Shown: positions 8,505 to 47,378 of the stretch, piece by piece | Layout of the letters: every line of letters starts with the position of its first letter | How positions within the stretch are numbered: the stretch's first letter is position 1 | The notes under the pieces: model-generated | The model's database searches: none | What the model was told of the DNA's origin: nothing | The model's input: the letters and a program-made list of their open reading frames with translations, nothing else | Origin: Candidatus Poseidoniaceae archaeon | GTDB taxonomy: Archaea; Thermoplasmatota; Poseidoniia; Poseidoniales; Poseidoniaceae | NCBI GenBank assembly: GCA_038125145.1 | Contig: JAYPDK010000004.1 | Coordinates: 5,505-52,882, forward strand | Direction: 5' to 3' | DNA length: 47,378 bases | Made by a program: the position numbers and the translations under genes

Positions 8505-8584
8505 CGGATTCCACCTGAGGCGTAGCCAACGACCCTCAGCCTTCAAATTGGCTGGATGGGAGGACGTCTTTGGAGGTGGGAACC

Positions 8585-10753: not shown

Positions 10754-10832
10754 ACGCAGACCTCGGCAGGCGTGCCTTTCACGCCCCGGCCCGCCGTCAC
10801 CTCCAAAGCCTCCAGAGGACGCATCGTCCCTG

Positions 10833-11762
10833 ATGGGTGAGCGTGAGCGGTCCCTCGCCGTGGCCGAAGCCGAGTTTGAGGAGGTGCCCATCGCTCCTCG
10901 CGGTCTCGGCCTCAACGACGGTCAACCGGGTACAGCGAAGCCACGTGCGCCGCTCGCCCTTCCACCGATGGCTCCGTTGACCCTTGGACGGGCACGCGTC
11001 GTCGCGGTGATGAACCAGAAAGGGGGGGTCGGGAAAACCACCACCGTGATCAATTTGGCCGCTGCGTTGGCACAGGCGGGCTCCAGGGTGCTGATCGTCG
11101 ACCTCGATGCCCAAGGCAACTGCGCGACGGGGCTTGGCATTCGCAAGGCTGACGTGGAGCGCAGCACGCGTGACCTGCTGCTCCAACCCGAGGCGGCTGG
11201 TGCCTGCAGGTACGCCACGTCCATTGAGAACCTGCACCTCGTGGTCGGCGACCGACGTCTGGTTGGCATCGAGGACGTGCTCGTGTCTGAACTCGGACGC
11301 GAGTCACGGCTTGCAGAGGGCCTGCAGCCCTTGCTGCCACACTACGATCTCGTGCTCATCGACACGCCGCCGAACCTAGGCTTGCTGGCGGTGAACGCGA
11401 TGTGCGCGGCCGACGGCGTCGTGATCCCCGTGCAAACGGAGTACTTCGCCCTCGAAGGCATCGCGATGCTGTTGCGCACCGTCGAACAGGTCCGCTTGCG
11501 CCTGAATCCTCGGCTTGGGGTGGATGGCGTGCTGATGACGATGCACGCGCCCACGTTGCTGAACAACCAGATCGCAGGGCAACTCCGGGAGCACCTTGGC
11601 AACGCTGTGGTGGAACCGCCCATCCGTCGCAACATTCGCCTCGCTGAAGCCACGAGCGAAGGGGAACCAATCCACGTGCACGCGCCTCGCTCCAACGGAG
11701 GGCAAGACCACCTGAGGATCGCGCAAGCCCTTGGGCGTCGATGGGGACTTTCGAAGGGGTGA
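10833..11762 (+). CDS. parA: ParA/Soj-family ATPase (ParA-1) with an N-terminal extension of about 55 aa
   Basis: Deviant Walker A NQKGGVGKTTT, DLDAQGN, IDTPPNLG, IPVQTEYFALEG and IRRNIRLAEA. Start set at ATG 10833. Confidence 0.92.
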   Translation: MGERERSLAVAEAEFEEVPIAPRGLGLNDGQPGTAKPRAPLALPPMAPLTLGRARVVAVMNQKGGVGKTTTVINLAAALAQAGSRVLIVDLDAQGNCATGLGIRKADVERSTRDLLLQPEAAGACRYATSIENLHLVVGDRRLVGIEDVLVSELGRESRLAEGLQPLLPHYDLVLIDTPPNLGLLAVNAMCAADGVVIPVQTEYFALEGIAMLLRTVEQVRLRLNPRLGVDGVLMTMHAPTLLNNQIAGQLREHLGNAVVEPPIRRNIRLAEATSEGEPIHVHAPRSNGGQDHLRIAQALGRRWGLSKG

Positions 11763-34008: not shown

Positions 34009-34039
34009 ACTCCAAGAGGGAGGAGCCCCTGCTCCAGCC

Positions 34040-34432
34040 ATGGACGAGCGGCAGGAGGTCGAATCCTCCGTGGAAGCCCCAGCCCTCAGTTGTCCACGAT
34101 GCAAGGGCATGCTGCCCATGGGCCTCGGCGAGGTAACCTGTGTGTTGTGCGATGCTCGTGTGCGTGTTGACCACCCGGGAACGCGTCGTGCATGGACCGA
34201 GGAGAAGGTCGCCTGCCCTGGATGCAGCAAGGTGTTGGTGGCTGGGGTGGACGACCGCCCCGCGCTGCTTCGTTGTGGCTCGTGCGAGGTGGAATTCCAC
34301 CTCACTCCGAAGCAGGCGAAGATCGAAGTCGCATGCCCAAGTTGCGACCGTCGACTTCGAATGAACCGCAGGCCAGGACGCCGGGAGGTCTCGTGCCCTG
34401 CTTGCGACACCGGATTCGCTGTCAACTTCTGA
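34040..34432 (+). CDS. Zinc-ribbon protein with six CxxC knuckles (three Zn sites)
   Basis: CPRC, CVLC, CPGC, CGSC, CPSC and CPAC in 130 aa. Confidence 0.85.
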   Translation: MDERQEVESSVEAPALSCPRCKGMLPMGLGEVTCVLCDARVRVDHPGTRRAWTEEKVACPGCSKVLVAGVDDRPALLRCGSCEVEFHLTPKQAKIEVACPSCDRRLRMNRRPGRREVSCPACDTGFAVNF

Positions 34433-34554
34433 ACCGGCGGGCTATGCGCCCTGCCAAAGCGAGAGGCTGCGGGCTGTTCGTCAGCGTTCACCTTATCTAT
34501 GAAAAGACGCGGATGTCGTGCCGTTAGCGGCTTTGCCGCTGGGATGGGAACGCC

Positions 34555-37080
34555 ATGTCGGAGTCAGAAGGGCCCTTCGCTCCGCGTCGCTCCTCAGGGG
34601 ACGATCGGAGGAGCCTCGCAGCCCTCCGAGGGCAATTTACCCGGGCAACCTCCACTACCGCAGACGAGGAGGCAGGCGTCAGCGCTCGGTACAGGGCGGA
34701 AGACCGATTGCGCTCGGACCTGAAACGCGAGCGGCGATTGCGGTATTCTGAGCTGCGTGAGCGCGTGCAGGCGCAGCAGGCCAACCTTGCAACAAGCCTG
34801 GAACTTCATCGCGAACGGACCCTCTCCGACGTGGAGCGGGAGCTTCGTGAAGCGATGGAAACGGAACTCGCTCAGGAGGGGCGTGAGTCTTTTGCTCGTG
34901 AGGAGGCTCGCCTGCGCGACGAGTACGAGGCGCGACTGGCGCGTGAACTTGAGGTCCTTCGTCAGCGTTTCGAGGTGGAGACCGATCGGCGCATGCAGGA
35001 GGAACAGGACCGACTCGCCGAGGACCTGCGTCAGCAACTTGAGCAGGAGCACACACAGCGTGTGGAGTTGATGCAGCAGCGCCTTGACTTGGAGCACCGT
35101 CAGCGGCTCCATCGCAGGATCAAGGCCTTCGAGGAGGAACTCCAGCACGAGATGGATCAGCGGTTTGCGTCCATGGAGGACGCAGAATTGGCTCGCCTTC
35201 GCGATGAACAGGACGCGCAGTTGGCAGAGCGCGAATCTCAACTCCGTCACGGCATCCGCACCCGTCTGGAACAACAACTGCGCCAGCGATTGAGCCTGCG
35301 TGAAGCGGCCCTCCGAGCAGAATACGCCAGGAGAAGCCAGCGCCTTGAAGCCAACTTGGCGGTGGAAATCCAAGAGGAACTTGAGCAGCGCCTCCGTCAC
35401 GAGACAGAGGTGCTTGAGGCGCGAATGCGTGAGGACGTTGAACTCTCCATCGCACGACGGCGTGACGAACTCCGACGTGAAGTCGAGGTACAGCTGCAGC
35501 AGGACTTTTCAGAACGCTTGGCAGACCGCAAGGCCCGCCTGCGTGAACGCTACGACCTCACGTACGGAAACGCCGTGGAGGACGTGGAGAACGCCCTGAG
35601 GCTCCAGGTGGAGTCCGATTTGGAGCAGCGCAACGAGGACGACTACTCCCGCTACCAGGCCGCCCGGGAGTCCGAGATTCAAAACCGCTTGGCCCGCTTC
35701 CGCTACGAGCGAGAGGCGGAGATTCGAGCAGAACTCGAGGAACAGTACGCAGCCAAGCGTACGGAGTGGACCGAACGCCTCGAACTTGAGTTCCAGAGCC
35801 GTGAAGCCGCAGCAAGGAAGGCCATCCTCTCCGAAGTGGATGCGAGCCTCCGAAACGAGCGCTTGTCGTGGGACACGGACCTCGATCTGCTGAAGGAAGA
35901 AACGGTGCTCGAACTTGAACTCGACATGGAGGAGCGGCTCAACGCCTTCCGTGAGCGGAAGATGGACGAAGTGGCCACGCAACTGGAGCGTCAGTTGGAC
36001 AAGCGTGAGGAAATCATGCGGAACAAGGCCCTGATCGACGTGCGTCGAAAGGAGGCCCGCATCCGTGCTGAAATCGAAGCCCAACTTGGGTTGAAGCGTG
36101 CGGAAATCCGTGACCGTATCTCGGGGTTGTCCAAGAAGATGGACGAGTTCAAGGCCATGGCCGAGGAGCGAATGCGAGAAAGCATCACGGCTCAGGTAGA
36201 GGGCGAGATCTCGACCGAGGAGGAGCACCTGGCGGAGCGCGAGGCTGAATTTGCGCGCCTTCAGGACACGGATACCCGTTTGGACAAGCGGCAACAATGG
36301 CTTTCCTCAATTTCCGGTCAGGGAGGTTCTGGCCTTGGTGCCAGCGCAGACGCCAGCACGTTGGGGGCAAGGCCTGACGCGCTCGGGGCCGCTGCTGGAC
36401 GGGGCTCGATGACCGCGCTCGCTCAGGCGGCAGAGGCGCAACCGGCACGCTTGGGCCTCGCGGGGATGAGGGCGCCCACGTCCACCGTCCGAACGCTTGC
36501 TCCCTCCGCGCCCACTCCAATTGTGAAGCCGGTGAAGCAGGTCAAAACCCCCGTCGTCTCCCCCGTCCGTCAGCCAATCACCCCTGCTCCGTCCGTTGAA
36601 CCTGCGCAGGAGTCCCTCACCCCTGCACCGGACATCGAACCGTCGGACGCGTCCTCCACCGAGGCCCTCGGGCCAGTGCTCGAGACCGAGGCTCCGGTCC
36701 TTGTTCCCGAGCCGGAACGCCCAGGTGCGGTTGAGGACGAGATGGTCACCGTCACGGAGGAGATCGAAGCCGAACTCCTCGAGGACATGATGGACGAAGT
36801 CGAGGCGGTGCTCGATGGAGCCATCGACGAGGGCGCGCAACACGACGACGTCCAAGCATCGATCGACGATAACCAACGGTCGATGGAAGCGGCGGTGTTG
36901 CACCCTGTTCGAACCATGCAGCCCGTGGGCAGCCCCGCAACCACGGCTCGCCTGAAGCAAGCCATGCCGGTGCTCGGTGTGGTGGAAGACGCCGCTCCAA
37001 CGGTCCTTCAACCCGTCCAAACCTTGCGGCCTTTGCGCCTTCCGTCGTCCAAAAACGAGGAGCCTTCGGACGACGCTTGA
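34555..37080 (+). CDS. Very long coiled-coil protein (about 550 aa E/R/L/Q-rich rod, Pro/acidic disordered tail)
   Basis: Almost no Pro or Gly from about aa 45 to 580; no TM, signal peptide or Walker motif. Confidence 0.85.
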   Translation: MSESEGPFAPRRSSGDDRRSLAALRGQFTRATSTTADEEAGVSARYRAEDRLRSDLKRERRLRYSELRERVQAQQANLATSLELHRERTLSDVERELREAMETELAQEGRESFAREEARLRDEYEARLARELEVLRQRFEVETDRRMQEEQDRLAEDLRQQLEQEHTQRVELMQQRLDLEHRQRLHRRIKAFEEELQHEMDQRFASMEDAELARLRDEQDAQLAERESQLRHGIRTRLEQQLRQRLSLREAALRAEYARRSQRLEANLAVEIQEELEQRLRHETEVLEARMREDVELSIARRRDELRREVEVQLQQDFSERLADRKARLRERYDLTYGNAVEDVENALRLQVESDLEQRNEDDYSRYQAARESEIQNRLARFRYEREAEIRAELEEQYAAKRTEWTERLELEFQSREAAARKAILSEVDASLRNERLSWDTDLDLLKEETVLELELDMEERLNAFRERKMDEVATQLERQLDKREEIMRNKALIDVRRKEARIRAEIEAQLGLKRAEIRDRISGLSKKMDEFKAMAEERMRESITAQVEGEISTEEEHLAEREAEFARLQDTDTRLDKRQQWLSSISGQGGSGLGASADASTLGARPDALGAAAGRGSMTALAQAAEAQPARLGLAGMRAPTSTVRTLAPSAPTPIVKPVKQVKTPVVSPVRQPITPAPSVEPAQESLTPAPDIEPSDASSTEALGPVLETEAPVLVPEPERPGAVEDEMVTVTEEIEAELLEDMMDEVEAVLDGAIDEGAQHDDVQASIDDNQRSMEAAVLHPVRTMQPVGSPATTARLKQAMPVLGVVEDAAPTVLQPVQTLRPLRLPSSKNEEPSDDA

Positions 37081-37119
37081 GGACGAGCCTTTGAAGGCTC
37101 GAAGCACGCACCAACGGCT

Positions 37120-39555
37120 ATGGTTCACACCCGCACGCTGCTGGCGGGCCTCGTGCTGCTCCTGATGCTGACCTCAACCTCGGGCGCTTCCCTCATCGAC
37201 GGAGGTGAGGTGCACAACGACAGCCGCGTCTTGGCGTGGTACGACCTCGGTGATGGCGGGGTGTTGACGGTCGACGCAGGGGGGGCCATCGTGGAGCACC
37301 TCTGGAGCCTTGGCCTCTTGCAAAAAGTGAATCAAATCGAAGCAAACGTGAGCGTGAACGCCGTCCGCTTCGATGCTGCTGCGGGCCTCATCGCCCTTGG
37401 ACACGACAACGGAGCCATCGTCCTCATGACAGACTCAGGTGAAGTGGTTCGCGACATCCAAACGGTCGACCCGGTCGAGCATCTTGATTGGGACAACGGA
37501 GGTGACCTTTGGCTGGTGCACAACGGTGGGGTCCGGCAGGCCGTTGAATACGGACCGAACGGCCCATCGGGTGCGAGGACGACCGTGATGAGCGGCGGTG
37601 TCGCCACCTTCCTTGTGCTCGACGATGGTCGGATCCTCACCGCTGGGTTCGACGGTACCGTGCTGGTTCATGCGGACGATGGAACACAAGAAGACCAAAT
37701 TTCAGGCCTCGGGGCGGCGGTCAAGTCACTTGTCGAAGACGGATTGGACCTCTGGATTGGTCTCTCCAACGGTGCCGTTCATCGGTTCAGCACGGTGACG
37801 TGGCAGGGCCTCTCGGTCTCGAGCAGCACCACGCCCGTCACCTCGCTCTCCCTTGATGGCGACTCCGGGGTGTTTGTTGGGCATCAAAACGGTCAGGTCA
37901 AGCATGTGGACGCGTCCCTCAACATCGTTCAGGGCTACCAGGCCACGGGCTCAGTCATCGCAGTGACGGTCAACGACGACGGCAGCCTTCACCTCATCAG
38001 CACCACGTCATCAAGCACGCGCGTTCGCCTCTTCGACGTTGATTCGGACGGCGACGGCGTCGCGGATGCGCAAGATGCCTTCCCCACCAACGCAGACCAG
38101 ACCAGCGATCGAGATGGTGATGGTTACGGGGACAATTCAGATGCAGCGGACGGTGACGCGTTCCCCGACGATTCCACGCAATGGGCCGACCGCGATGGCG
38201 ATGGGTACGGCGACGACCTCGAGGGAGCCATGCCCGACGCGTTCCCCGACGATCCGAACCAGTGGGTGGACGAAGACGGCGATGGCGTCGGCGACAACGA
38301 TGAGGACCCAAACGGCGACGCTTTTCCTGAGGACCCGACGCAATGGGCCGATGATGACCGAGACGGCTACGGAGACAACCCGTCCGGTTACCGTCCCGAC
38401 GACTGCCCCGAATCGAACGGCTTCTCGACAAACGACCGCCTCGGTTGCACGGACCGCGACCTCGACGGATGGTCTGACCCGGACGATGGTTGGACGGTAG
38501 CAGATGGAGCCGATGCTTTTCCCACCGAGCGCACGCAATGGGCAGACAGCGATGGTGACGGGTACGGTGATGCGCAAGACGGCGTGCGCCCCGACGCATG
38601 CCCCACGGTTCCAGGGGCTTCGATTCAGGCATTGGTACCCGTCATTGAGGAAGTCACCACCTACTCCGCAGAGGCCATGTTTGGCTGTCCCGACGAGGAC
38701 GGGGACGGATGGGCCGATGCTTCGGAGGTTGGTGATGGCATGGCGCAGGACCCAAGCGAACACCTCGACCAAGACGGCGACGGCGTGGGCCAGCGCACAG
38801 ATTACAACGACACGAACGCTTTGGTCAGCACCGTTGAGGACCACTGCCGCCTTGCGTTCGACGACGTGCGGGACATCTGCCTTGGGATCCGCAGCGTGGA
38901 ATACCAAGACTACCTCTCGACCTTGAACGAATCTGAGCGGAGCCGGATGACCTTCTCGTACTGGAACGCCACGGTGGCGAACGGTCCTGGGGCGGGCGGC
39001 GTGGACATGAACCTCGTGAAGCAGGTGTCGATGTTGGCCGGGCTTGTCTTCGTCGCCATGACTGCAGCCATCCTGACGGTGTCTGCCGCTTCCCGACGAA
39101 GGAACAGCACCGCTGCTGAATCCCAGAAGACCTTCGTTGGCTTTGGCGATTCCGACAGCATCTCTGAGGAGGCGCTGACGGGCCATGCAGGGCTCTCCGC
39201 ACGGGGTGGAGTCGAAGACGACGCGCTATGGCGGGACGACCCGATGGAGTCCGAGAAGGACGCCATGAACGCCAACGAGGCGCCCCTTCAGCCCATGCCT
39301 GCTGAACCACAGGAGATGGGCCCTGAAGGTGTTGAAGCGCGCGAGAACGAGGCTCAAGCGACGGGCGTAGGCCCAACGCCGGCCATCGCTGAAACGTCAG
39401 CGACGGACGATGCCCCTTTGACCGAATCCGGGTCGGAGGCGAAGGAGCATGCAACCGCACCCCCGGTCCCCGAATCGGGCCTCCCAGAAGGATGGACCAT
39501 GGAGCAATGGGAGCACTACGGGCACCAGTGGCTTGCAAAGCAGGCTGAGGACTGA
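37120..39555 (+). CDS. Surface protein: beta-propeller-like domain, thrombospondin type-3 Ca-binding repeats, TM, cytoplasmic tail ending GLPEGWTMEQWEHYG
   Basis: Signal peptide; WD-like repeats (ILTAGFDGTV, WIGLSNGAV, FVGHQNGQV); DxDGDGxGD and DAFP.D.TQW repeats; TM LAGLVFVAMTAAILTVSA. Confidence 0.88.
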   Translation: MVHTRTLLAGLVLLLMLTSTSGASLIDGGEVHNDSRVLAWYDLGDGGVLTVDAGGAIVEHLWSLGLLQKVNQIEANVSVNAVRFDAAAGLIALGHDNGAIVLMTDSGEVVRDIQTVDPVEHLDWDNGGDLWLVHNGGVRQAVEYGPNGPSGARTTVMSGGVATFLVLDDGRILTAGFDGTVLVHADDGTQEDQISGLGAAVKSLVEDGLDLWIGLSNGAVHRFSTVTWQGLSVSSSTTPVTSLSLDGDSGVFVGHQNGQVKHVDASLNIVQGYQATGSVIAVTVNDDGSLHLISTTSSSTRVRLFDVDSDGDGVADAQDAFPTNADQTSDRDGDGYGDNSDAADGDAFPDDSTQWADRDGDGYGDDLEGAMPDAFPDDPNQWVDEDGDGVGDNDEDPNGDAFPEDPTQWADDDRDGYGDNPSGYRPDDCPESNGFSTNDRLGCTDRDLDGWSDPDDGWTVADGADAFPTERTQWADSDGDGYGDAQDGVRPDACPTVPGASIQALVPVIEEVTTYSAEAMFGCPDEDGDGWADASEVGDGMAQDPSEHLDQDGDGVGQRTDYNDTNALVSTVEDHCRLAFDDVRDICLGIRSVEYQDYLSTLNESERSRMTFSYWNATVANGPGAGGVDMNLVKQVSMLAGLVFVAMTAAILTVSAASRRRNSTAAESQKTFVGFGDSDSISEEALTGHAGLSARGGVEDDALWRDDPMESEKDAMNANEAPLQPMPAEPQEMGPEGVEARENEAQATGVGPTPAIAETSATDDAPLTESGSEAKEHATAPPVPESGLPEGWTMEQWEHYGHQWLAKQAED
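38035..38820 (+). repeat. TSP3-type repeat tract within the CDS (units of about 26 aa)
   Basis: Recurring DAFPDDSTQWADRDGDGYGD-like units; tgggccga and gacggcgatgg recur at the DNA level. Confidence 0.85.
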
Positions 39556-39563
39556 GTTCCGAA

Positions 39564-39827
39564 TCACGCCCACGTGACGGGCAGGTCCTCACGCAGACGC
39601 GCGAGTTCCTCACCGGTGTACATTGGTCGGCCACCGTCCTTCACCGTACTCTGGATCAGCCAAAGCACCCCGTTCCAGGCGTTTCGGCTGGCGTGGATGT
39701 CAAGGTCGCCTCTGGCAGCAACCTCGAGCAGGCGTGCTTCTTCTGTGGACGGGTCAAACAGGGCCCTCACCAAGTGCTTCGCATCAAAGGCCACCTGAGG
39801 TGGCTTCCAACTCATCATGGTGCTCAC
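39564..39827 (-). CDS. Truncated PIN-like protein (N-terminal half of a VapC/PIN_3-type fold)
   Basis: VAFDAKHLVRALF...ARLLEVAARGDLDIHAS resembles the PIN_3 start pattern VVLDTNVLVSAL...ARLL...G...S. GTGA overlap with the upstream RHH gene. Confidence 0.6.
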   Translation of the reverse strand: MSTMMSWKPPQVAFDAKHLVRALFDPSTEEARLLEVAARGDLDIHASRNAWNGVLWLIQSTVKDGGRPMYTGEELARLREDLPVTWA

Positions 39828-40066
39828 ACCTTGAAGGGAGCGAGCTTCAAGCGCTCGACCAAGTGGTCGACGTCGACGTTCGCAGCGTCCTTGGCGCGTG
39901 CTCGTAGCGTGCCGAGGCTTCCGTCCATACGGGCCATCCGATGCTGGCGAATCAGGTCCTGCAGCAGTTCATCCACGCTGCGGTACCCGCCATGGGTTCG
40001 CAAGGTGTTCAATTGTCGTCGTACTTCGTAGCTCACGCTCACGGAGGTCATCCCCTTCGCTGTCAT
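39824..40066 (-). CDS. Ribbon-helix-helix DNA-binding protein
   Basis: Strand TSVSVS, helix YEVRRQLNTLR, turn GGYRS, helix VDELLQDLI, then an extra C-terminal helical segment. Confidence 0.75.
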   Translation of the reverse strand: MTAKGMTSVSVSYEVRRQLNTLRTHGGYRSVDELLQDLIRQHRMARMDGSLGTLRARAKDAANVDVDHLVERLKLAPFKV

Positions 40067-40075
40067 CGTGCATCC

Positions 40076-40114
40076 CACGTGCGGCTTCCTTCGTGGCTAC
40101 TTAAGCCGCGCGTG
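40076..40114. promoter_or_regulatory. 12-bp inverted repeat (11/12 match) over the RHH-gene promoter
   Basis: CACGTGCGGCTT-N15-AAGCCGCGCGTG, overlapping the minus-strand TATA-like TTAAGTA at 40098-40104. Confidence 0.6.
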
Positions 40115-40156
40115 AGGCAGTGCTGTTTTCGCAGGGGTTCTTCGATGCCGAGCGCG

Positions 40157-41119
40157 TCACCGACGGCCTTGGGACTCCAAGAGCACGCGGTTCGGCTCGG
40201 TGACGCCGTACTGCGAGCGCATGCTCTGGACCCGGTCGTGGAACTCCTTGGCTAAGGTCCAATATTCCAGGGAGCCCGCACCCGCCCCGTTGGGGCTTGG
40301 TTTGTTCAGCAGGACCGTCGGTGCACCCGACCATGGCGCTTCCGCGACGTTGACGAGCCGGCGAATCGAGGTGTTGAACAGCGTGTTGGGCATCTTCAGC
40401 GTGACTTGGTCCACCACGTGACGCGAGAGTTTGGATCGGGTGTCCACCATGGTCATGACCACGCCGAAGAACTTGAGGTTCCGGTTGATTCGTCGTTGGA
40501 TCATTTGAATGGAATTCATCAGCATGCTGAATCCCTCCAAGGAGTAGTATTCTGCTTGCACCGGGGCCACCACCCAATTGGCGGCGCTCAGGGCGTTGAT
40601 GGACAGGAGGCCCAGCGAAGGAGGTGTATCGATGATGATGTAGTCGAACTTGTCCACAATCGGCGCCAAGGCCTCACGAAGCCGGGTTTCACGTCCGATC
40701 TTGTGGGAGAGTTCAATCTCAGCACCGGAGAGGTGAATGTCGCTGGGGAGCAACCAGAGGTTTTCGGTGGTCAGGGTGGACGGGGGGCGCTTCTTTTCGT
40801 TGCGCATCATGAACGCGTTTCGCATGGAGTTGGTGAGGTCCTGTGGGTCGAGGAGGTAATCCTCCATCAAGGGCAACTCTTCGCCAAGGTCGTTCGTCAA
40901 GAGGTCGTAGGCCGTCTTTTTGATGCGCTTCTTCTCGATACCAAACGACGTGGCGCAGTTTCCTTGGGGGTCGAGGTCGATGAGGAGCACCTTGGCCGGG
41001 GGTAGGCCCATCCGTTCGTAACCCCGAGCTAAGGCCGCAGCAAGGTTGACCGCCGTTGTGGTCTTGGCACAGCCACCCTTCTGGTTCGCCACGGCGATGA
41101 CCATCTTGTAGGGGTCCAT
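40157..41119 (-). CDS. parA: ParA/Soj-family ATPase (ParA-2) with internal insertions
   Basis: NQKGGCAKTTT, DLDPQGN, LSGAEIEL, IDTPPSLGLL, PVQAEYYSLEG, TMVDTR and AEAP. Confidence 0.93.
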   Translation of the reverse strand: MDPYKMVIAVANQKGGCAKTTTAVNLAAALARGYERMGLPPAKVLLIDLDPQGNCATSFGIEKKRIKKTAYDLLTNDLGEELPLMEDYLLDPQDLTNSMRNAFMMRNEKKRPPSTLTTENLWLLPSDIHLSGAEIELSHKIGRETRLREALAPIVDKFDYIIIDTPPSLGLLSINALSAANWVVAPVQAEYYSLEGFSMLMNSIQMIQRRINRNLKFFGVVMTMVDTRSKLSRHVVDQVTLKMPNTLFNTSIRRLVNVAEAPWSGAPTVLLNKPSPNGAGAGSLEYWTLAKEFHDRVQSMRSQYGVTEPNRVLLESQGRR

Positions 41120-41133
41120 GGCTACCTCTCCCT

Positions 41134-41145
41134 CCTTCCGGAAGG
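41134..41145. promoter_or_regulatory. Perfect 12-bp palindrome CCTTCCGGAAGG in the parA-2 leader
   Basis: Lies between a TATA-like TTGATAG (minus strand, about 41159-41165) and the purine-rich SD of parA-2. Confidence 0.45.
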
Positions 41146-41183
41146 GGCCGGTCCTCCTCTATCAACCTCGGGCTGAGTTGGGT

Positions 41184-42167
41184 TCACACCGGCTGAACGA
41201 CGGGGACAGGAACCTCGGACAGGATCTTTCGGACAATATGGCCGCCGGTGATGCCGCGGATTTTTGCTTCAGGCTTCATCACAATCCTGTGACCAATGAC
41301 CTGCAAGGCCACGGACTTGATGTCATCGGGCACAACGTAGGTTCGGCCGGCGATCGCGGCAGAGGCACGACCGGTCTTGAAGAGGGCTTGTGACGCACGT
41401 GGGGAGGCCCCGTTGACCACACGGTGGTCCTCGCGGGTCCGCTGGACGATTTCGACGATATACGCCAGAATGGACGGGTCCACGTGTACGCCTTCCAGCG
41501 CGCGCTGCATGGCGACGACTTTCTTCGGTTCGGTGACTTGCGCCACCTCGTGGTCGTCCTGACCACGCATCTTTCGGCGAGCGAGAATGGCCTTCTCCTC
41601 CGCACGGTCGGGGTAGCCCATGCTCATTTTCATGAGGAAGCGGTCCATCTGGGCCTCAGGAAGCGGATAGGTTCCTTCCTGCTCGATGGGGTTCTGGGTC
41701 GCCAAGACAACGAAAGGAGCAGGAAGCTTGTGGGTGATGCCTTCAATCGTCACTTGCTTTTCTTCCATCGCCTCCAGCAACGCGGCCTGAGTCTTTGGCG
41801 GTGCACGGTTGATTTCGTCCGCGAGCAGGACGTTGGAGAACAGTGGACCTGCTCGAAGTTTGAACTCCCCAGACTTTTGATCGTACATGTAGGTCCCCAT
41901 GATGTCGGAGGGGAGCAGGTCGGGAGTAAACTGCACACGCTTGAACTTGCAGCCAAGCGCGCGAGCAAAGGTGTTCGCGAGCAAGGTCTTGGCAAGCCCG
42001 GGGAAGTCCTCAAGCAGCATGTTGCCGTTTGACAGGATTCCAACCGTCACCCTTCGGAGGTTTTCCTCCTTGCCGATGATGACCTTCGCGACCTCGCTCA
42101 TGAGGTCGTTCGAAATCTGGGAGACCGTGTTGATGATTTTAGCGGTGTTTGCATCGGCTGCATGCAT
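41184..42167 (-). CDS. moxR: MoxR-family AAA+ ATPase
   Basis: LLEDFPGLAKT, RVQFTPDLLPSD, LADEINRAPPKTQAALLEAMEE, ATQNPIEQEGTYPLPEAQMDRF and GASPRA. Confidence 0.95.
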   Translation of the reverse strand: MHAADANTAKIINTVSQISNDLMSEVAKVIIGKEENLRRVTVGILSNGNMLLEDFPGLAKTLLANTFARALGCKFKRVQFTPDLLPSDIMGTYMYDQKSGEFKLRAGPLFSNVLLADEINRAPPKTQAALLEAMEEKQVTIEGITHKLPAPFVVLATQNPIEQEGTYPLPEAQMDRFLMKMSMGYPDRAEEKAILARRKMRGQDDHEVAQVTEPKKVVAMQRALEGVHVDPSILAYIVEIVQRTREDHRVVNGASPRASQALFKTGRASAAIAGRTYVVPDDIKSVALQVIGHRIVMKPEAKIRGITGGHIVRKILSEVPVPVVQPV

Positions 42168-42249
42168 CGAAGTCACCCTCCTACAAGCCTTTGAGGCGCG
42201 TGATACCATATTTGAACGTGCGTGCCTCACACGTCATCCGTTCGTCGCG

Positions 42250-44091
42250 TCATCGCGCCCAGAAGTGATTCTCCTTCCTGTGGAGGCGCACGATTTCCTC
42301 AAGGATCTCTTGCTCCACTGCCGACAGTTCCACCTTTCGTAGGCGACGTGCGTGCGATTCTGGGACGTCGACAAGGAATTCATCCCCTTCGTCGATGTGC
42401 CTCCCAACGGTCGGTCCTTGGATGGCGCACGCCACTTCATCGCCTTGGTTGGCTTCCTTGACGTCCTCACTCGATCGGGTTCGCAGGGATTTCACCTGAC
42501 CGACCGGAGACCCATCGGGTCGCATGAGGCGCTGCCCTATGTGGACGCGCCCACCAATCACCCGGACGCCGATGATGGCTGGGTCCCGACCACGAAACGT
42601 GTGATCGGGGAGGTACAGCAGTCGACCGGGGTGGACAAGGTCTTCACGAGCCGCGGCTTCCATCGCCTCTTTGGTGGCGTCACGCCACGCTTCGGTCCGG
42701 TCGATGATGTGGTAGATGATGTCCCCGTGGACGAACTCCACCGGTGCATCGTCGCCTTCCAGTCTGTCTGCAACTTCTCGGTTCGGACCAACGGCGAAGG
42801 CCACAATCATGCGGTCGAGTGGGTCCTTCGCCGCCTCCGCCGTCATGATGTCACGCTTGTTCACTGGCCCAACGGTGGCCATTCGGATGGGGACGTCGAG
42901 TTGCGTGAGTTCGTACGCCAACGCCTCCAGTCCACCAATCGTGTCGGCCTTGATCACAATGCCTTCTTCTGCAAGGGCAATGTCCACGCGGCATTCTTGT
43001 TGGCAGGCTTCGAGTGCACGAGCGAGGCCTTCCTCACCCACCGCCAACCTCACGGTGCTTCCTGCCAGGGCCCGCTCCAGCCCTTGAGCCACAATTTTGA
43101 CGCCGCACGCCGCTTCAACCGAGTCGACGCTCTCCCACCGGTCGCCCGCATCCCGCATCTCAGCCATGCCTCGCGGGCGCTTGAGTCCCTTGATGCGGGT
43201 GGTTGAGGGGCCGTCCGAGGTGGCGAACACAATGGTGTCCCCGGTCGCGAGCACCCCACGTGAGAGGATGACGTCGATGGTCTTGCTCATTCCAACTTCG
43301 TCCTTCATCTCCAGAATCGTGCCCTCCGCATCACCAAGCGTGTCGGTTAACCGGTCCTCAAGGAAGCGCTCTGCAAGCCCAACCGTGACGGTGAGGAGGT
43401 CTTGCAAGCCTTCACCCTCCTTGGCCGACATGGGCACAAGCGCGACGTCCTGCCGGAAATCCTTGATTCGGTCGTAGCGCTCGAGGTTGAAACCGTGTTC
43501 AGCAAACATGCTGACGAGTTTCCAAAACCTGTCATCGAACAAGGCCTGAACGTCCTTTCGCTGCTCTCGGAAGGAAGCCGCAAACGATCGTCCCCGTTCC
43601 GACGTCCACCCGTGCAAGCGGTCGACCTTGTTTCCAGCCACCACGAAGGGTGTTCGCGTGCGTTTGAGGATCTCGAGGCTCTCGATGGTCTGCGGTTGCA
43701 GGCCTTCCATCACGTCGACGACGAGGATGGCGATGTCGGCCAACTGACCTCCGCGGGACCGAAGGGAGGTGAACGAGTGGTGGCCTGGCGTATCGATGAA
43801 GAGAAGGCCTGGTGATTTGAACGGCCGCCCCCCCATCATGGCGGAACACGTCTCGTTCAGCACGTCCGCGGGGACCTCCGTGGCACCGATGTGTTGCGTG
43901 ATGCCTCCTGCCTCGCGGTCCATCACCGAGGCTTGTCGGTCCACACCAATCGAGCGAACGAGGTCCAGCAGGCTGGTTTTTCCATGATCCACATGGCCGA
44001 GGACGCTTACAATCGGTTGACGGTTGTCGCCACGCAACGGCGCGTCCTCGCCTCCCTCATCGGAGGGCGTCGGGTCGGCCACGTTCGCCAC
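42250..44091 (-). CDS. infB: Translation initiation factor aIF5B (IF-2)
   Basis: RQPIVSVLGHVDHGKTSLLD, EAGGITQHIGAT, LFIDTPGH, NKVD and IKADTIGGLEAL. Confidence 0.98.
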   Translation of the reverse strand: MANVADPTPSDEGGEDAPLRGDNRQPIVSVLGHVDHGKTSLLDLVRSIGVDRQASVMDREAGGITQHIGATEVPADVLNETCSAMMGGRPFKSPGLLFIDTPGHHSFTSLRSRGGQLADIAILVVDVMEGLQPQTIESLEILKRTRTPFVVAGNKVDRLHGWTSERGRSFAASFREQRKDVQALFDDRFWKLVSMFAEHGFNLERYDRIKDFRQDVALVPMSAKEGEGLQDLLTVTVGLAERFLEDRLTDTLGDAEGTILEMKDEVGMSKTIDVILSRGVLATGDTIVFATSDGPSTTRIKGLKRPRGMAEMRDAGDRWESVDSVEAACGVKIVAQGLERALAGSTVRLAVGEEGLARALEACQQECRVDIALAEEGIVIKADTIGGLEALAYELTQLDVPIRMATVGPVNKRDIMTAEAAKDPLDRMIVAFAVGPNREVADRLEGDDAPVEFVHGDIIYHIIDRTEAWRDATKEAMEAAAREDLVHPGRLLYLPDHTFRGRDPAIIGVRVIGGRVHIGQRLMRPDGSPVGQVKSLRTRSSEDVKEANQGDEVACAIQGPTVGRHIDEGDEFLVDVPESHARRLRKVELSAVEQEILEEIVRLHRKENHFWAR

Positions 44092-44104
44092 CTCGCAGGT
44101 GGGG

Positions 44105-44560
44105 TCATTCGTAGACCCAGCGCTGTGCGTCCTGCGTCCACGTCATCGTTCCCTCTGGGAACCAAAGGGCGAGTTCGCTTGCAGCAGATTCCTCGGCGTC
44201 CGATCCGTGAATCATGTTGTAGCCCATGTCCATGCCGAAGTCGCCACGGATGGTGCCTGGTGCCGCTTCCCGTCCATTGGTGGATCCAATCAGTCGGCGT
44301 GCAACCGCGATCGCGTCGACACCTTGCCACGCCATGCAGATCACAGGTCCCGAGGTCACAAAGGAGATCAATCCCTCAAAGAAAGGGCGCTCAGCATGGA
44401 CTGCGTAATGGGCGCGGGCCGTGGCCTGGTCCGGCACAACGGCCTTCATTGCGACGAGTTGGAGCCCCTTACGCTCAAAGCGCCCAACGATGTCGCCAAC
44501 AAGGCCACGTTGGACGCCGTCGGGCTTGATCATGATGTAGGTCGTCTGCATGGTGTTCAC
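44105..44560 (-). CDS. ndk: Nucleoside diphosphate kinase
   Basis: [18 protein letters not shown] and NMIHGSD. Start is GTG 44560 or ATG 44551. Confidence 0.98.
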
Positions 44561-44611
44561 CTGTTGGATTGTCCGGGCGCTCCTTCAAGAAGCATCCGTT
44601 CGGCCAAGGCC

Positions 44612-44803
44612 TCACTGGATGCCGCCCTTGACGTAGTGGCGCGTCCACTTGACGCGGCGCGCGTTGCGCTTCAGTTGGACCATGTTCTTCCTGGCCTTCG
44701 AATTCTTGAACCAGAGGATGCTCCCGTCACGGCGAACGTACATCGTTCCGGTCCCGGGTTCAATCTCGTCGCCAGAAAAGCTGCAGACACGTCGCTCGGG
44801 CAT
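44612..44803 (-). CDS. rpl24e: 50S ribosomal protein L24e (eL24)
   Basis: [21 protein letters not shown]...RRVKWT; conserved cluster position. Confidence 0.96.
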
Positions 44804-44808
44804 CACGT

Positions 44809-45033
44809 TCACCTCGCGTTGAGCTTGCGGGCTTCTCGCCCGGTGTCCTTCAGCATGAGGATGTCCCCAACCCTGACGGGGCCAAGCACGTTCCTCGTGA
44901 TGATTCGACCAACGTCGCGTGGGTTCGGTGCGTCGTTGACACGCACCTTCACCTGCGTGGCTTCACCGGTCATGCCGGTGCGTCCAACAACTTCGACGAC
45001 CTCCGCGGGCCATCCTCCGAGCTCTCCGCTCAT
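44809..45033 (-). CDS. rps28e: 30S ribosomal protein S28e (eS28)
   Basis: [22 protein letters not shown] and [19 protein letters not shown]. Confidence 0.97.
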
Positions 45034-45046
45034 CGAAATCACTCCT

Positions 45047-45418
45047 TCACGCCTTCAGGCCCTTGATCGTCTCAAGAACCTCGTCGAGCATTTCCTGGGC
45101 TGCCTTGGGGACCTCCATGAGGGCCAGGCTGGCCGCCTTGACACCGGGTTCCATGCCGGCTTCCTTGGCGAGGAATTCCTGCGAAGGGACGTAGCCGTAG
45201 GCAATGTCGTTGTCTTCGCAGATGAGGGGGATGTGGTTGACCAACTCGGGGGGGTTGACGTCCTCGGCAATCACGACGAACGCCGCGGTCTTCCGGAGGG
45301 CGACCTTGGTCACTTCGTTCGACCCACGCTTGATGCGGGCGCCGTTGCAGGCCTGCACCAGCTCGTAGATCTTGTTGCTCAGGTCTTCGGGGGTCTCGTA
45401 ACGGATGTGCACACTCAT
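45047..45418 (-). CDS. rpl7ae: 50S ribosomal protein L7Ae (eL8)
   Basis: [30 protein letters not shown] and YVPSQ..L. Confidence 0.96.
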
Positions 45419-45436
45419 CGGATAGCCTCCTCGTGT
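45411..45436 (-). promoter_or_regulatory. Kink-turn in the rpl7ae leader covering the SD and start codon (L7Ae autoregulatory element)
   Basis: mRNA 5'-ACAC-GA-GGA-ggcua-UCC-GAU-GA-GUGU-3': C-stem GGA/UCC, 3-nt bulge GAU, tandem G.A pairs, NC-stem ACAC/GUGU. Confidence 0.85.
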
Positions 45437-45463
45437 TCGCAGGCCGAGCGCACAGTGGCGCGG

Positions 45464-45470
45464 ATATAAA
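45464..45470 (-). promoter_or_regulatory. Canonical TATA box TTTATAT of the rpl7ae operon
   Basis: About 27 nt upstream of the k-turn leader. Confidence 0.7.
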
Positions 45471-45484
45471 CGCACCGGAACGCT

Positions 45485-46435
45485 TCAGGAGGCATCGAGG
45501 TCGAGTTCATCGAGAACAGAACGGACACCGCGCGCTATGGCGGGGCCCCCTGGAATCACCGCCCGTCGGTTGGGTAGGCTGCTGGTGGCGTGCACGCCGT
45601 CGACATGGCTTGAGAGCCTGTTCACGGCCCCCCCTGTGAAGAGTCCATGGCTGCATGCGGCGTGCACGGCCACGGCTCCTTGGCTTCGCAAGGCGTCTGC
45701 AGCCTTGCAGATGGTCCCGCCAGTTGCGATCATATCGTCAACGATGGCCACAACGCGTCCCTCAACGTTGAGATCCTTCGCCTTGTGGACAATGGTGTGT
45801 GCATCGATACGGGTTTTCTCGAGGTACGAAAATCCACAGCCGATGGATTCTGCCACAGCGGAGGCCCTGTCAATGGCTCCTTTGTCCGGGGAGAGGATGA
45901 AATCAGGTCCGACCGTGTTTTGGAGGTGCATCGCCATCTCCGGCATCGCGGAGGCGAACGCGACGGGGACGTCGAGGTCGTTCAACACTGCAGGGGCATG
46001 AAGGTCAAGCACAACGAGCCCGTCGCAGTGGGCCGCGAGGAGCCGTCCAATGGCACGCGCTGAGATGGCCTCTCCTGGTTTGAACCGCTTGTCCTGACGG
46101 GCATAGCCAAAGTACGGGACAGCAAGGATCAGTCCTGGGCCCACAGAGCCTAGCCTCTGAGGCTCAATTCCGCGCAAATTTTCCATTCGACCCTCTCGAA
46201 TGTCGCGAAGCAGGTCCAGGAGAAGCAGGGTTTCGACAATCCCCGCATCAGGGAAGGTGTTCGAAACGACCACCACCGGCCCTTCGCGCACTGCAGCAAC
46301 GTGTTCTTCTGGCAAGCGAACGTATCCTTCCGTGTCGGGGAAGCGACGGGTTTCAGCGTGGACGTGCGTCCATCCTAAAGAAGCCGCAAGTTCATCGCCG
46401 ATGGTGCGGCCGCTGCTGCTTGAGACGACGACCAT
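45485..46435 (-). CDS. prs: Ribose-phosphate pyrophosphokinase
   Basis: RFPDTEGYVR, PYFGYARQDKRFKPGE, SPDKGA, EKTR, AIVDDMIATGGT and ACSHGLF. Confidence 0.96.
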   Translation of the reverse strand: MVVVSSSSGRTIGDELAASLGWTHVHAETRRFPDTEGYVRLPEEHVAAVREGPVVVVSNTFPDAGIVETLLLLDLLRDIREGRMENLRGIEPQRLGSVGPGLILAVPYFGYARQDKRFKPGEAISARAIGRLLAAHCDGLVVLDLHAPAVLNDLDVPVAFASAMPEMAMHLQNTVGPDFILSPDKGAIDRASAVAESIGCGFSYLEKTRIDAHTIVHKAKDLNVEGRVVAIVDDMIATGGTICKAADALRSQGAVAVHAACSHGLFTGGAVNRLSSHVDGVHATSSLPNRRAVIPGGPAIARGVRSVLDELDLDAS

Positions 46436-46489
46436 GTGGTTACGCCGTCGGGTCGACGCTTCAAGGCCTTTCCGCGTGAAGGTGGTGAG

Positions 46490-46563
46490 TGCGCGAGGCA
46501 GGACTCGAACCTGCGACCTCCCGGTTATCAGCCGGGTGCTCCAACCGACTAAGCTACCCGCGC
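46490..46563 (-). tRNA. tRNA-Ile(GAT)
   Basis: Reverse complement GCGCGGG...CCCGG-CT-GAT-AA-CCGGG...GTTCGAGTCC...CTCGCGC-A. Confidence 0.96.
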
Positions 46564-46612
46564 TTGGGCAAGCCGCCGACCTGCGCCGGCGTCATAAGAA
46601 TGACGGTGGACT

Positions 46613-47206
46613 TCACATGAATTCCGCGTCGTCCATCTCATTGAGTTGGATGAACGACGGAAGCTGAAGTGCTCGCTCAAAGGTCCGGCCAAGCACCACC
46701 TCGTCAAGGCGATCTCGCGTACGTGCGATGGCCGTGACCGGCAAACGGATGGTCGGTTCGAGATCGAACTCTTGTTGAATGCCACGTCGCAGCGTCACGA
46801 CGAAGCCCTTGTAGGTCCGCTTCACCTTGAGCAGTCCCGTGATGATGCCGACTTCTTTCCCTTGGTTGTCCAGGACCGCGCGGTCAAGCATTTCGTCAGG
46901 AGCATACAATTGCTCGTTGATGCGAACGGTGTTTCGCCACCTGCGCTGCAGTTCGCGCATGGACTTTGACAAGCGGACGGACCCGTCGTCGCCGATGCTG
47001 TGCACCAGTTCCTTCGGGAGCGGTGCTTCTTCGGCGGGCTTGCGCATGAATTCGTCTGCCACATCCGTTTCAACCTGAAGCCGCATGGAGCGGACCCGAG
47101 ATTCGTTCGGATGGTGGCGTTCACCGACGATCGTTCCTACCTTCGTGTCCTTGACGTACACGTCGCGCTGCATCAATTCATGGATGTTGAAGTCCGTGGT
47201 TCCCAT
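46613..47206 (-). CDS. Tandem PRC-barrel domain protein
   Basis: Two repeats of the PRC pattern: ELMQRDVYVKDTKVGTI...LPKELVHSIGD.GSVRL and EMLDRAVLDNQGKEVGII...LPVTAI...DEVVL. Confidence 0.72.
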   Translation of the reverse strand: MGTTDFNIHELMQRDVYVKDTKVGTIVGERHHPNESRVRSMRLQVETDVADEFMRKPAEEAPLPKELVHSIGDDGSVRLSKSMRELQRRWRNTVRINEQLYAPDEMLDRAVLDNQGKEVGIITGLLKVKRTYKGFVVTLRRGIQQEFDLEPTIRLPVTAIARTRDRLDEVVLGRTFERALQLPSFIQLNEMDDAEFM

Positions 47207-47239
47207 TCCCTTCCCTCGGAGGTGCTGTGAAGAAGGGGA

Positions 47240-47378
47240 TTCTTAATCCCTTCGACGCATAATCCCTGCTTCCAATTGCAAAAAGCAGAATTTAGGGTGG
47301 AATTCAATTGGAATATGCGGTCATACGACTGTCGTATAATCGTGAAATGTAATTGAGAGCAGCATACATTCGTTTCAT
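47240..47378. other. AT-rich non-coding region with nested inverted and direct repeats
   Basis: GC content drops sharply relative to the rest of the window. TTCCAATTG/CAATTGGAA, ATACGAC-T-GTCGTAT and TAATCCCT twice. Confidence 0.7.

Follow-up and report, generated by a model that had tools for sequence, protein, structure and literature searches.

The pair of small genes described here may well be a vertically inherited, single-copy and tamed descendant of a toxin-antitoxin (TA) module of the vapBC type, a proposition that we regard as evenly balanced. It lies in a stretch of 47,378 nucleotides (nt) from Candidatus Poseidoniaceae archaeon (assembly GCA_038125145.1, contig JAYPDK010000004.1, positions 5,505-52,882, forward strand), which as a whole is called the window and to which all coordinates refer. 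The first gene (39824-40066, minus strand) starts at ATG 40066 and encodes a ribbon-helix-helix (RHH)-like protein of 80 amino acids (aa), assigned by alignment, model and Foldseek search; the second (39564 to 39818 or 39827, minus strand) encodes X87, a truncated PIN-like protein assigned by structure searches. Both stand behind the gene for ParA2 (40157-41119, minus strand), a Walker-type ParA/Soj-like ATPase of 320 aa. A sequence-only reading of the locus had proposed that a vapBC-like pair was domesticated here as the DNA-binding adaptor of a ParA protein. The vapBC-like layout and folds and the domestication stand up to our analysis, but the pair is tied to ParA2 by position only.

The same reading had the RHH-like gene and X87 coupled through a GTGA overlap. 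This overlap is present in the sequence and would give an X87 of 87 aa from GTG 39827, but ATG 39818, 5 nt past the RHH stop codon, is the likelier start and gives 84 aa, because in relatives the X87 N-terminus M(M)xW[KR]P is conserved and the start codon is mostly an ATG that lies 4-45 nt beyond the RHH stop. The coupling is tight either way, and the spacing between the two genes ranges from -4 to about +45 nt among 22 relatives.

The model of X87 has a predicted local distance difference test (pLDDT) score of 94.3 and the topology strand-helix-helix-strand-helix-(hairpin)-helix-strand, with three main strands. PIN proteins come first when it is compared with known structures. Foldseek ranks PIN and VapC proteins at the top (E 0.08-0.9, TMq 0.53-0.57), and the top 10 of 48,161 chains aligned with VIA-align are all PIN proteins (Z 6.3-4.1); the alignments are in register, begin at strand 1 and reach about residue 70-80 of PIN chains that have 120-147. 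The best structural match is PcrIIC1 (8wmm chain G), with Z 6.3 and a root mean square deviation of 2.4 over 67 residues at 12% identity. The nearest named clusters in the ESM Atlas are short PIN_3, PIN_2 and PIN proteins (0.89-0.93), and the ten best family-bearing matches of a language-model search all share the family or clan of the top one, a result that a third of shuffled proteins also reach. With 84 aa, X87 spans only the first half of the PIN fold and falls short of the about 120-140 aa and the five-stranded sheet of a complete domain. Among 21 X87 sequences, no acidic column is conserved at 90% or more, so X87 has no conserved acidic quartet, and the residue after strand 1, where an Asp is a hallmark of PIN proteins, is Asp in 12, Glu in two and non-acidic in seven; the invariant residues are W48, N49 and P80. 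Because of the missing acidic column and the inconstant Asp, "half-PIN," the term chosen earlier from the letters, is a fair name, and X87 is unlikely to be a PIN nuclease. We consider it probable that X87 derives from a PIN protein.

The RHH-like protein aligns without gaps over residues 1-75 in 22 orthologues. The pattern MTSVSVS..RR..N is invariant within the first 20 residues and is followed by two helices and then a long helix, and most orthologues end in a C-terminal L-x-P-F tail. An AlphaFold model of the monomer (pLDDT 70) has helices at residues 13-26, 31-62 and 66-74; residues 1-12 have no assigned secondary structure, and the pLDDT is below 50 at residues 1-4 and 6-8. As modeled, this unformed N-terminal strand has the look of an RHH subunit without its partner strand. 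All Foldseek matches listed for the model are RHH proteins (PrpA/ParD antitoxins, NikR, CopG, Arc, MazE9 and the pCXC100 ParB), at weak E-values of 0.4-5.5, and the nearest ESM Atlas clusters are named "RHH CopG" (0.92). Scans of the protein against Pfam, NCBIfam and PADLOC gave no match, and the only Pfam hit of the family was VAPB_antitox, at an E-value of 0.086 and for one of 22 members. A PF17363 tag, precomputed for two clusters of the family, disappeared on rescanning. Our work confirms the open reading frames (ORFs) of ParA2 and of the 80-aa protein behind it on the same strand, and we accept the assignment of the latter as RHH-like, as had been claimed, as likely but not proven.

The relatives and genera that we compared carry codes: G for genomes, L for loci, f1 to f5 for groups of genomes and g18 for one genus. 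The RHH-like gene and X87 occur in the same 31 of 41 relatives (24/24 in f1, 2/2 in f2, 4/14 in f3 and the window's own genome), and no genome has one of the two without the other beside it. Across the class, X87 is present in 105 of 201 genomes (87/89 in f1, 17/66 in f3, 0/43 in f4 and 0/2 in f5), usually as a single match. A profile run against 1.84 billion representatives retrieved only 45 X87-family proteins, all of 150 aa or less, and word-indexed searches retrieved 101 X87 clusters and 497 RHH clusters. The source names of these clusters, where given, are Poseidoniales, Poseidoniaceae or Euryarchaeota archaeon, and the pair was found only in this order; the Joint Genome Institute (JGI) names some members "predicted CopG family antitoxin" or "predicted nucleic acid-binding protein." The host genome (1.75 Mb, 82% complete, so that genome-wide absences hold for that part) has one match to the RHH family and no gene that matches a Pfam PIN family. 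The genomes without the pair form a single clade inside f3 on trees of aIF5B and of MoxR, with support of 99/96 and 97/96 (23 rows), which argues for one loss of the pair. They measure 1.3-1.6 Mb and have kept ParA2.

A vapBC-like origin of the pair is supported because an RHH-like gene, with an N-terminal DNA-binding part and a C-terminal extension, comes first and a PIN-like gene second, with folds to match. Its domestication is supported because the pair is single-copy in a core locus and is inherited across the order, because X87 has no Asp or Glu column conserved at 90% or more, and because the genome has no Pfam PIN gene. Several observations weigh against our proposal. The structural scores of X87 are modest (Z 4-6.3, Foldseek E at least 0.08), and Z below 8 can reflect a common arrangement; scans of X87 against Pfam (E up to 0.1), NCBIfam and PADLOC returned no family, the PIN clan included, and a search of the PDB with its family profile gave nothing below an E-value of 0.1. 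X87 has an acidic residue at position 27 in 18 of the 21 sequences and at position 40 in 19, so that a residual metal or catalytic site may persist. The RHH model is that of a monomer, of middling confidence and with the ribbon unformed, a PDB profile search with the RHH family alignment likewise gave nothing below an E-value of 0.1, and the RHH proteins of f2 lack the L-x-P-F tail. Finally, the binding of X87 to the RHH-like protein, the self-pairing of X87 and the binding of DNA are all interactions that we infer.

How might such a tamed pair work? VapBC complexes carry the antitoxin-binding groove in the N-terminal half of the PIN domain, and this is the half that X87 keeps. We hypothesize that the invariant N-terminal strand of the RHH-like protein forms a DNA-reading ribbon in the dimer, and that the half-PIN protein, presumably no longer a nuclease, grips the C-terminal helix and the L-x-P-F tail of its partner as VapC grips VapB. 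Self-pairing of X87 could then bridge RHH dimers into a higher-order DNA-bound complex, which would act as a repressor or an architectural factor and not as poison and antidote.

ParA2 matches Pfam AAA_31 (E 2e-52) and CbiA (3e-20), and its deviant Walker A sequence KGGCAKTT is invariant in 20 orthologues, as are DLDPQGN and IIIDTPPS. Its nearest solved relatives are bacterial, a "ParA family protein" (8ray_B, E 7e-51) and Thermus Soj (1wcv, 1.7e-40); Sulfolobus SegA (7dut) is matched only at 7.5e-16, and the structure of delta (2oze) is a weak relative at 2e-10. Two parts of ParA2 are not covered by the solved Soj proteins: a conserved insertion of about 50 aa after the Walker A' region (residues about 65-118, 40770-40930) and a basic C-terminal tail (residues about 295-320, 40157-40240). 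The ParA2 proteins of the pairless clade lack this tail (MRxxFGVxExxRL...) and the N-terminal PYK, both of which are present in all pair-bearing lineages. The loss of the tail alongside the loss of the pair is suggestive of a link, yet both losses are a single evolutionary event, and the correlation has therefore a sample size of one. At E-values up to 1e-40, ParA2 orthologues were found in 20/20 f1, 10/10 f3, 0/28 f4 and 0/2 f5 genomes, the same range, the order only, as that of the pair. No ParB_N gene lies beside ParA2, unlike the arrangement in chromosomal ParABS (Soj/Spo0J) systems. ParB_N (PF02195) is matched in the genome only by a small ORF (C73:876-1097, minus strand of its contig; open frame of 149 aa); it scores 29.3 bits, barely above the cutoff, and is unlinked to either ParA gene of the window.

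The pair belongs to a block of genes that all lie on the minus strand in the order ndk (44105-44560), aIF5B (42250-44091), MoxR (41184-42230), ParA2, RHH and X87. The identities of ndk and aIF5B are confirmed, so that the cluster does lie among core genes as first described; MoxR is a MoxR-type AAA+ ATPase (Pfam AAA_3 E 1.9e-65, AAA_lid_2 5.8e-20). Of the 31 pair-bearing genomes, 29 have the pair directly behind ParA2 and on its strand. The whole block is syntenic in the loci fetched, and hence adjacency to ParA2 is not specific. Two genomes depart from this order. In G018 (L026, G018:C4:32000-40000), the MoxR-ParA2 block and ndk are inverted relative to all other genomes examined, while the pair and aIF5B are in place, which leaves the pair and MoxR divergent. 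In G013, ParA2 is the last gene of its contig, and the pair is on a different one, behind an unrelated ORF of at least 516 aa. The gene downstream of X87 in the window, which converges on it, encodes a beta-propeller/TSP3 surface protein of 811 aa (37120-39555, plus strand), and in both G018 and G013 the pair is still beside the surface-protein gene. The pairless clade has kept MoxR-ParA2 in the eight loci examined; in four of these the next gene after ParA2 is a convergent coiled-coil gene, and the surface-protein gene is absent from this place or has only a partial match there. The f2 genomes have the pair but lack the surface-protein gene at the locus. Looking for full-length surface-protein orthologues in f2 and the pairless clade was uninformative, because TSP3 repeats and a shared C-terminal tail swamped the search.

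The gene most tightly tied to ParA2 is MoxR, which is directly upstream in the loci examined and moves with ParA2 in the G018 inversion. This otherwise constant junction can be split: in genus g18, the two genes are separated by an inserted gene that encodes a multi-pass membrane protein of 222 aa (L046 2473-3141; also L047 and L048). Parts of the locus are covered by contigs assembled from RNA libraries. A 919-nt contig, with 35 differences and hence from a related strain, extends across the RHH-like gene, from X87 on one side into ParA2 on the other (39613-40531), and contigs of 146 nt connect the MoxR stop with the ParA2 start. Being assembled contigs from four libraries of four studies, they show presence and bridging but not starts, ends, strand or a single transcript, and the parts that they leave uncovered (for example, 40758-41048) carry no meaning. 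A complex prediction with two RHH, two X87 and one ParA2 chain, in which ParA2 was scored, returned 0.00 in both runs; it had no controls and its five chains are unlike the calibration, so that the value speaks neither for nor against binding.

Two promoter-like boxes are conserved at the locus, each followed by a purine-rich ribosome-binding stretch. TTAAGTA (40098-40104, minus strand) is TATA-like and precedes the RHH start codon by about 35-40 nt. It is found exactly or nearly so at the same distance in most of 22 loci and is the conserved element of the ParA2-RHH spacer; the pair thus stands behind a conserved box of its own. TTGATAG (41159-41165, minus strand), the core of a TTGAtAGaGG box that is conserved in relatives, lies in the 64 nt that separate MoxR from ParA2, some 45 nt ahead of the ParA2 start. 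Composition would predict 38.5 copies of TTAAGTA in the 1.75-Mb genome, yet there are only three, each of them upstream of an ORF. The other two (G000:C38:5051 and G000:C49:1351) precede ORFs for a long signal-peptide protein and a lipoprotein-like protein, at a distance that fits a TATA box. For this reason we read TTAAGTA as a TATA box, which may or may not double as an RHH operator; it may be a strong, near-consensus TATA box of this GC-rich archaeon. Apart from it, the loci compared hold no conserved operator-like sequence before the RHH-like gene. A scan for bacterial-type promoters and terminators found nothing above shuffled sequence, by a method that is unsuited to archaea.

Operator-like repeats had been noted at the RHH promoter and in the ParA2 leader, and both are there. 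An inverted repeat, CACGTGCGGCTT / AAGCCGCGCGTG (40076-40087/40103-40114), with 11 of 12 positions complementary and a 15-nt spacer, flanks the TATA-like box, and a perfect palindrome of 12 base pairs (bp), CCTTCCGGAAGG (41134-41145), lies in the ParA2 leader, where its 3' half runs into a purine-rich Shine-Dalgarno-like GGAGG. Their reading as operators, however, is unsupported. Perfect 12-bp palindromes number 24 in the window, where 30 first-order Markov simulations give 15.5 +/- 4.0, and repeats with 12-nt arms (up to one mismatch, 3- to 30-nt loop) number 12, against a simulated 6.8 +/- 3.6; we regard these counts as chance level. Both the downstream arm of the inverted repeat and the leader palindrome are broken in L003, the closest relative, with 96% identity in ParA; the downstream arm is not kept in L004 either, and more distant relatives share neither motif. 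From this comparison of sequences, the inverted repeat is specific to the window's lineage. The suggested search for further genomic copies yielded none beyond chance: the palindrome occurs once, and the repeat arms occur two and four times, in unrelated places. We also considered a conserved RNA hairpin that would hide the ribosome-binding site of ParA2, for which short stems are visible by eye in several relatives, but RNAalifold gave a consensus structure with 0 pairs for 20 ParA2 leaders, and we rejected it. Positions 33000-47378 contain no array of iterated, centromere-like repeats, only seven rows of two or three copies inside genes; a centromere-like site could lie elsewhere in the genome.

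Could the pair nevertheless be a partition adaptor, whose RHH dimers bind a centromere-like site while the RHH-like protein or a bridging X87 recruits and stimulates ParA2? The models would be omega/delta of pSM19035, ParG/ParF or AspA-ParB-ParA of pNOB8, a three-part partition machine. The position of the pair in 29 of 31 genomes, the taxonomic range that it shares with ParA2, the lack of a ParB_N gene at ParA2 and the RNA-library contigs that cross the ParA2-RHH spacer are all in keeping with this reading, as is the precedent of omega, at once RHH repressor of an omega-epsilon-zeta operon and ParB of the ParA delta. So is the missing C-terminal tail and PYK of ParA2 in the pairless clade, but this co-loss is the single event noted above, and the same clade keeps ParA2 next to MoxR in all eight loci, which argues that the core job of ParA2 is independent of the pair. 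Furthermore, adjacency is unspecific in a block that is syntenic from ndk to the surface-protein gene, and the pair has its own TATA-like box and is parted from the 3' end of ParA2 in G018 and G013. Only 5-6 residues (MTAKG, MTGEG or MGSPD) precede the invariant, putatively DNA-binding strand of the RHH-like protein, without a conserved basic residue, positions 33000-47378 hold no iterated or conserved repeats, and the two palindromic motifs do not recur in the genome beyond chance. These points weigh against an obligatory adaptor role, and we consider a partition adaptor possible but unlikely. A bolder form of the idea is more doubtful: a three-part positioning machine for the chromosome or another cargo, independent of ParB, ParG and SegB, in which a bacterial-type, Soj-like ParA would work with a tamed TA pair, the RHH-like protein marking DNA and the half-PIN protein bridging RHH dimers and docking on the C-terminal tail of ParA2, while the same ParA would also be tied to the MoxR chaperone and possibly to a membrane-anchored coiled-coil rod. 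Streptomyces ParA is linked to the polar coiled-coil protein Scy, and by analogy a link between ParA2 and its coiled-coil neighbor would be a speculative idea.

Less probable than the simple adaptor is a local transcription factor pair without a partition role, in which the RHH-like protein and X87 as co-repressor would autoregulate and perhaps control a neighbor, be it the surface protein, the coiled-coil rod or MoxR-ParA2; this overlaps with the tamed-module proposal but names a target. The pair's own promoter-like box fits, as does its place beside the surface-protein gene in G018 and G013 despite the broken link to ParA2, and that gene is absent or partial in the pairless clade; against this, f2 has the pair without the surface-protein gene at the locus, the co-loss is again one event, and the TATA-like box is the only conserved element where an operator would be sought. 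A live TA or stress module, in which X87 would do harm either without nuclease action or as a minimal nuclease formed by pairing and the RHH-like protein would neutralize it, would account for the antitoxin-first order, the tight coupling, the acidic residues at positions 27 and 40 and the JGI names. We consider it very unlikely, given a single copy in a fixed place, inherited vertically across the order with one loss, unlike the mobile and patchy vapBC modules, and given a PIN fold reduced to one half, a hallmark Asp that varies and no match to a PADLOC defense model. The likeness of X87 to PIN proteins could also be convergent, X87 being a new small alpha/beta protein and the pair not derived from a TA module. 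No sequence-profile link contradicts this, and Z values up to 6.3 are within the range for models without true relatives. Set against it are the ten of ten PIN chains at the top of 48,161, aligned in register from strand 1, the independent first rank of PIN proteins in Foldseek, the clustering of language-model matches as PIN_3, PIN_2 and PIN (with the reservation about shuffled proteins given above) and a partner that is RHH-like and comes first, as in vapBC; convergence is the least probable of the readings of the pair.

The genes on the other side of the locus, and the second ParA gene of the window, deserve mention. The 811-aa surface-protein gene and a gene for an 841-aa coiled-coil protein flank the locus directly (34555-39555, plus strand). 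The last 30 or so residues of the surface protein (778-807 of 811; 39450-39555) recur in five relatives, at the C-termini of numerous ORFs about 900-1700 aa long, and look like a shared cytoplasmic tail or sorting motif. ParA-1 (10605-11762, plus strand; 385 aa with an N-terminal extension of about 130 aa; AAA_31 E 7.5e-56) directly follows the gene for a protein of 727 aa whose N-terminal part carries a SAP DNA-binding domain (PF02037, E 2.6e-11), both genes lying within 8570-11762, and has paralogues in nearly all relatives. The two may be a separate pair of a ParA and a DNA-binding protein.

Marine Group II (MGII) archaea rank with the most abundant microbes in surface ocean waters and are not known to have a cultured member. 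Literature listings on ParA or segregation in Poseidoniales and MGII, and on inactive PIN proteins together with VapB and ParA, contained nothing on this system. ParA2 is an orphan Soj-like ParA without ParB beside it, and the pair is the only DNA-binding candidate at its locus. If our proposal is right, the locus would be a case of a TA module turned into a fixed, apparently non-toxic core pair, with the PIN domain cut down to what may be the partner-binding half only. A true adaptor role would mean that a centromere-binding protein had arisen by a new route; otherwise, X87 would still be a new minimal PIN-derived family that is confined to one archaeal order and has 45 representatives among 1.84 billion proteins.

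The closest parallel to the pair is VapBC. Here as there, the DNA-binding gene comes first and the PIN-like gene second, with stop and start codons that overlap or nearly touch, as within an operon; the likely RHH domain is N-terminal and followed by a C-terminal extension, and X87 superposes on the N-terminal half of VapC. In contrast to VapC, with about 130 aa, X87 has 84 aa and lacks the C-terminal half and the conserved acidic quartet. The pair also has no Pfam PIN or VapB match and consists of fixed, single-copy core genes, whereas vapBC modules are mobile and multi-copy. The best structural match of X87, PcrIIC1, is introduced in the part of its source that we draw on as a predicted PIN nuclease and protein-binding accessory factor of some type II-C CRISPR loci (PMC12669027). 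It has 134 residues and the full fold, shares 12% identity with X87 and comes from an unrelated context.

Partition systems of type Ib, such as ParF/ParG of TP228, consist of a small Walker ParA followed by a small RHH centromere-binding protein, and in ParG the RHH part is C-terminal and preceded by a long flexible tail that stimulates ParF. Both ParG on ParF and omega on delta act through the N-terminal tail. The likeness to our locus is that ParA2 carries the deviant Walker A motif KGGxxK[ST]. A small RHH-like gene follows it directly in 29 of 31 genomes, but this gene has its own TATA-like box and is parted from ParA2 in G018 and G013. The differences are that the RHH part is N-terminal here, that ParA2 with 320 aa is closer to chromosomal Soj proteins and that a third gene is present. 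Omega of the Inc18 plasmid pSM19035 is described, in the portions of the sources cited, as the ParB of the ParA delta (PMC2441792) and as the RHH repressor of the omega-epsilon-zeta operon that binds arrays of 7-10 heptads (PMC10532202). As far as these portions go, delta/omega is thus also a ParA with a small RHH protein that heads a TA operon, and a precedent for one RHH protein serving both. Omega binds heptad arrays, and no such array is near this locus; the RHH-like tail of 5-6 residues is unlike the flexible tail of type Ib proteins; and the partners of omega are epsilon and zeta, not a PIN-like protein, on a Firmicutes plasmid and not an archaeal chromosome.

The archaeal system to compare is SegAB of the Sulfolobales, presented in the parts of two studies used here as a chromosomal ParA-like ATPase with an adjacent small, site-specific RHH DNA-binding protein, to which a third neighbor, SegC, is tied (PMC8682754, PMC11381335). 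SegC is given a thiamine diphosphate (ThDP)-binding-like fold and NTPase activity in the part consulted of the second (PMC11381335), and SegB a C-terminal RHH part and an N-terminal SegA-binding region with a conserved motif of its own in that of a preprint (bioRxiv 10.1101/2025.04.15.649018). In our pair the RHH-like part is N-terminal, the reversed order, and no SegB structure is among the matches listed. ParA2 is not of the SegA type, matching SegA at an E-value of 7.5e-16 against 1.7e-40 to 7e-51 for bacterial Soj/ParA proteins, and X87 is PIN-like, in contrast to the ThDP-binding-like fold that the cited part reports for SegC. Hence, the pair is not SegB, although, judged from the same parts of these sources, the two archaeal loci share a common layout: a chromosomal ParA-like ATPase, a small RHH protein that adjoins it and a third neighboring gene.

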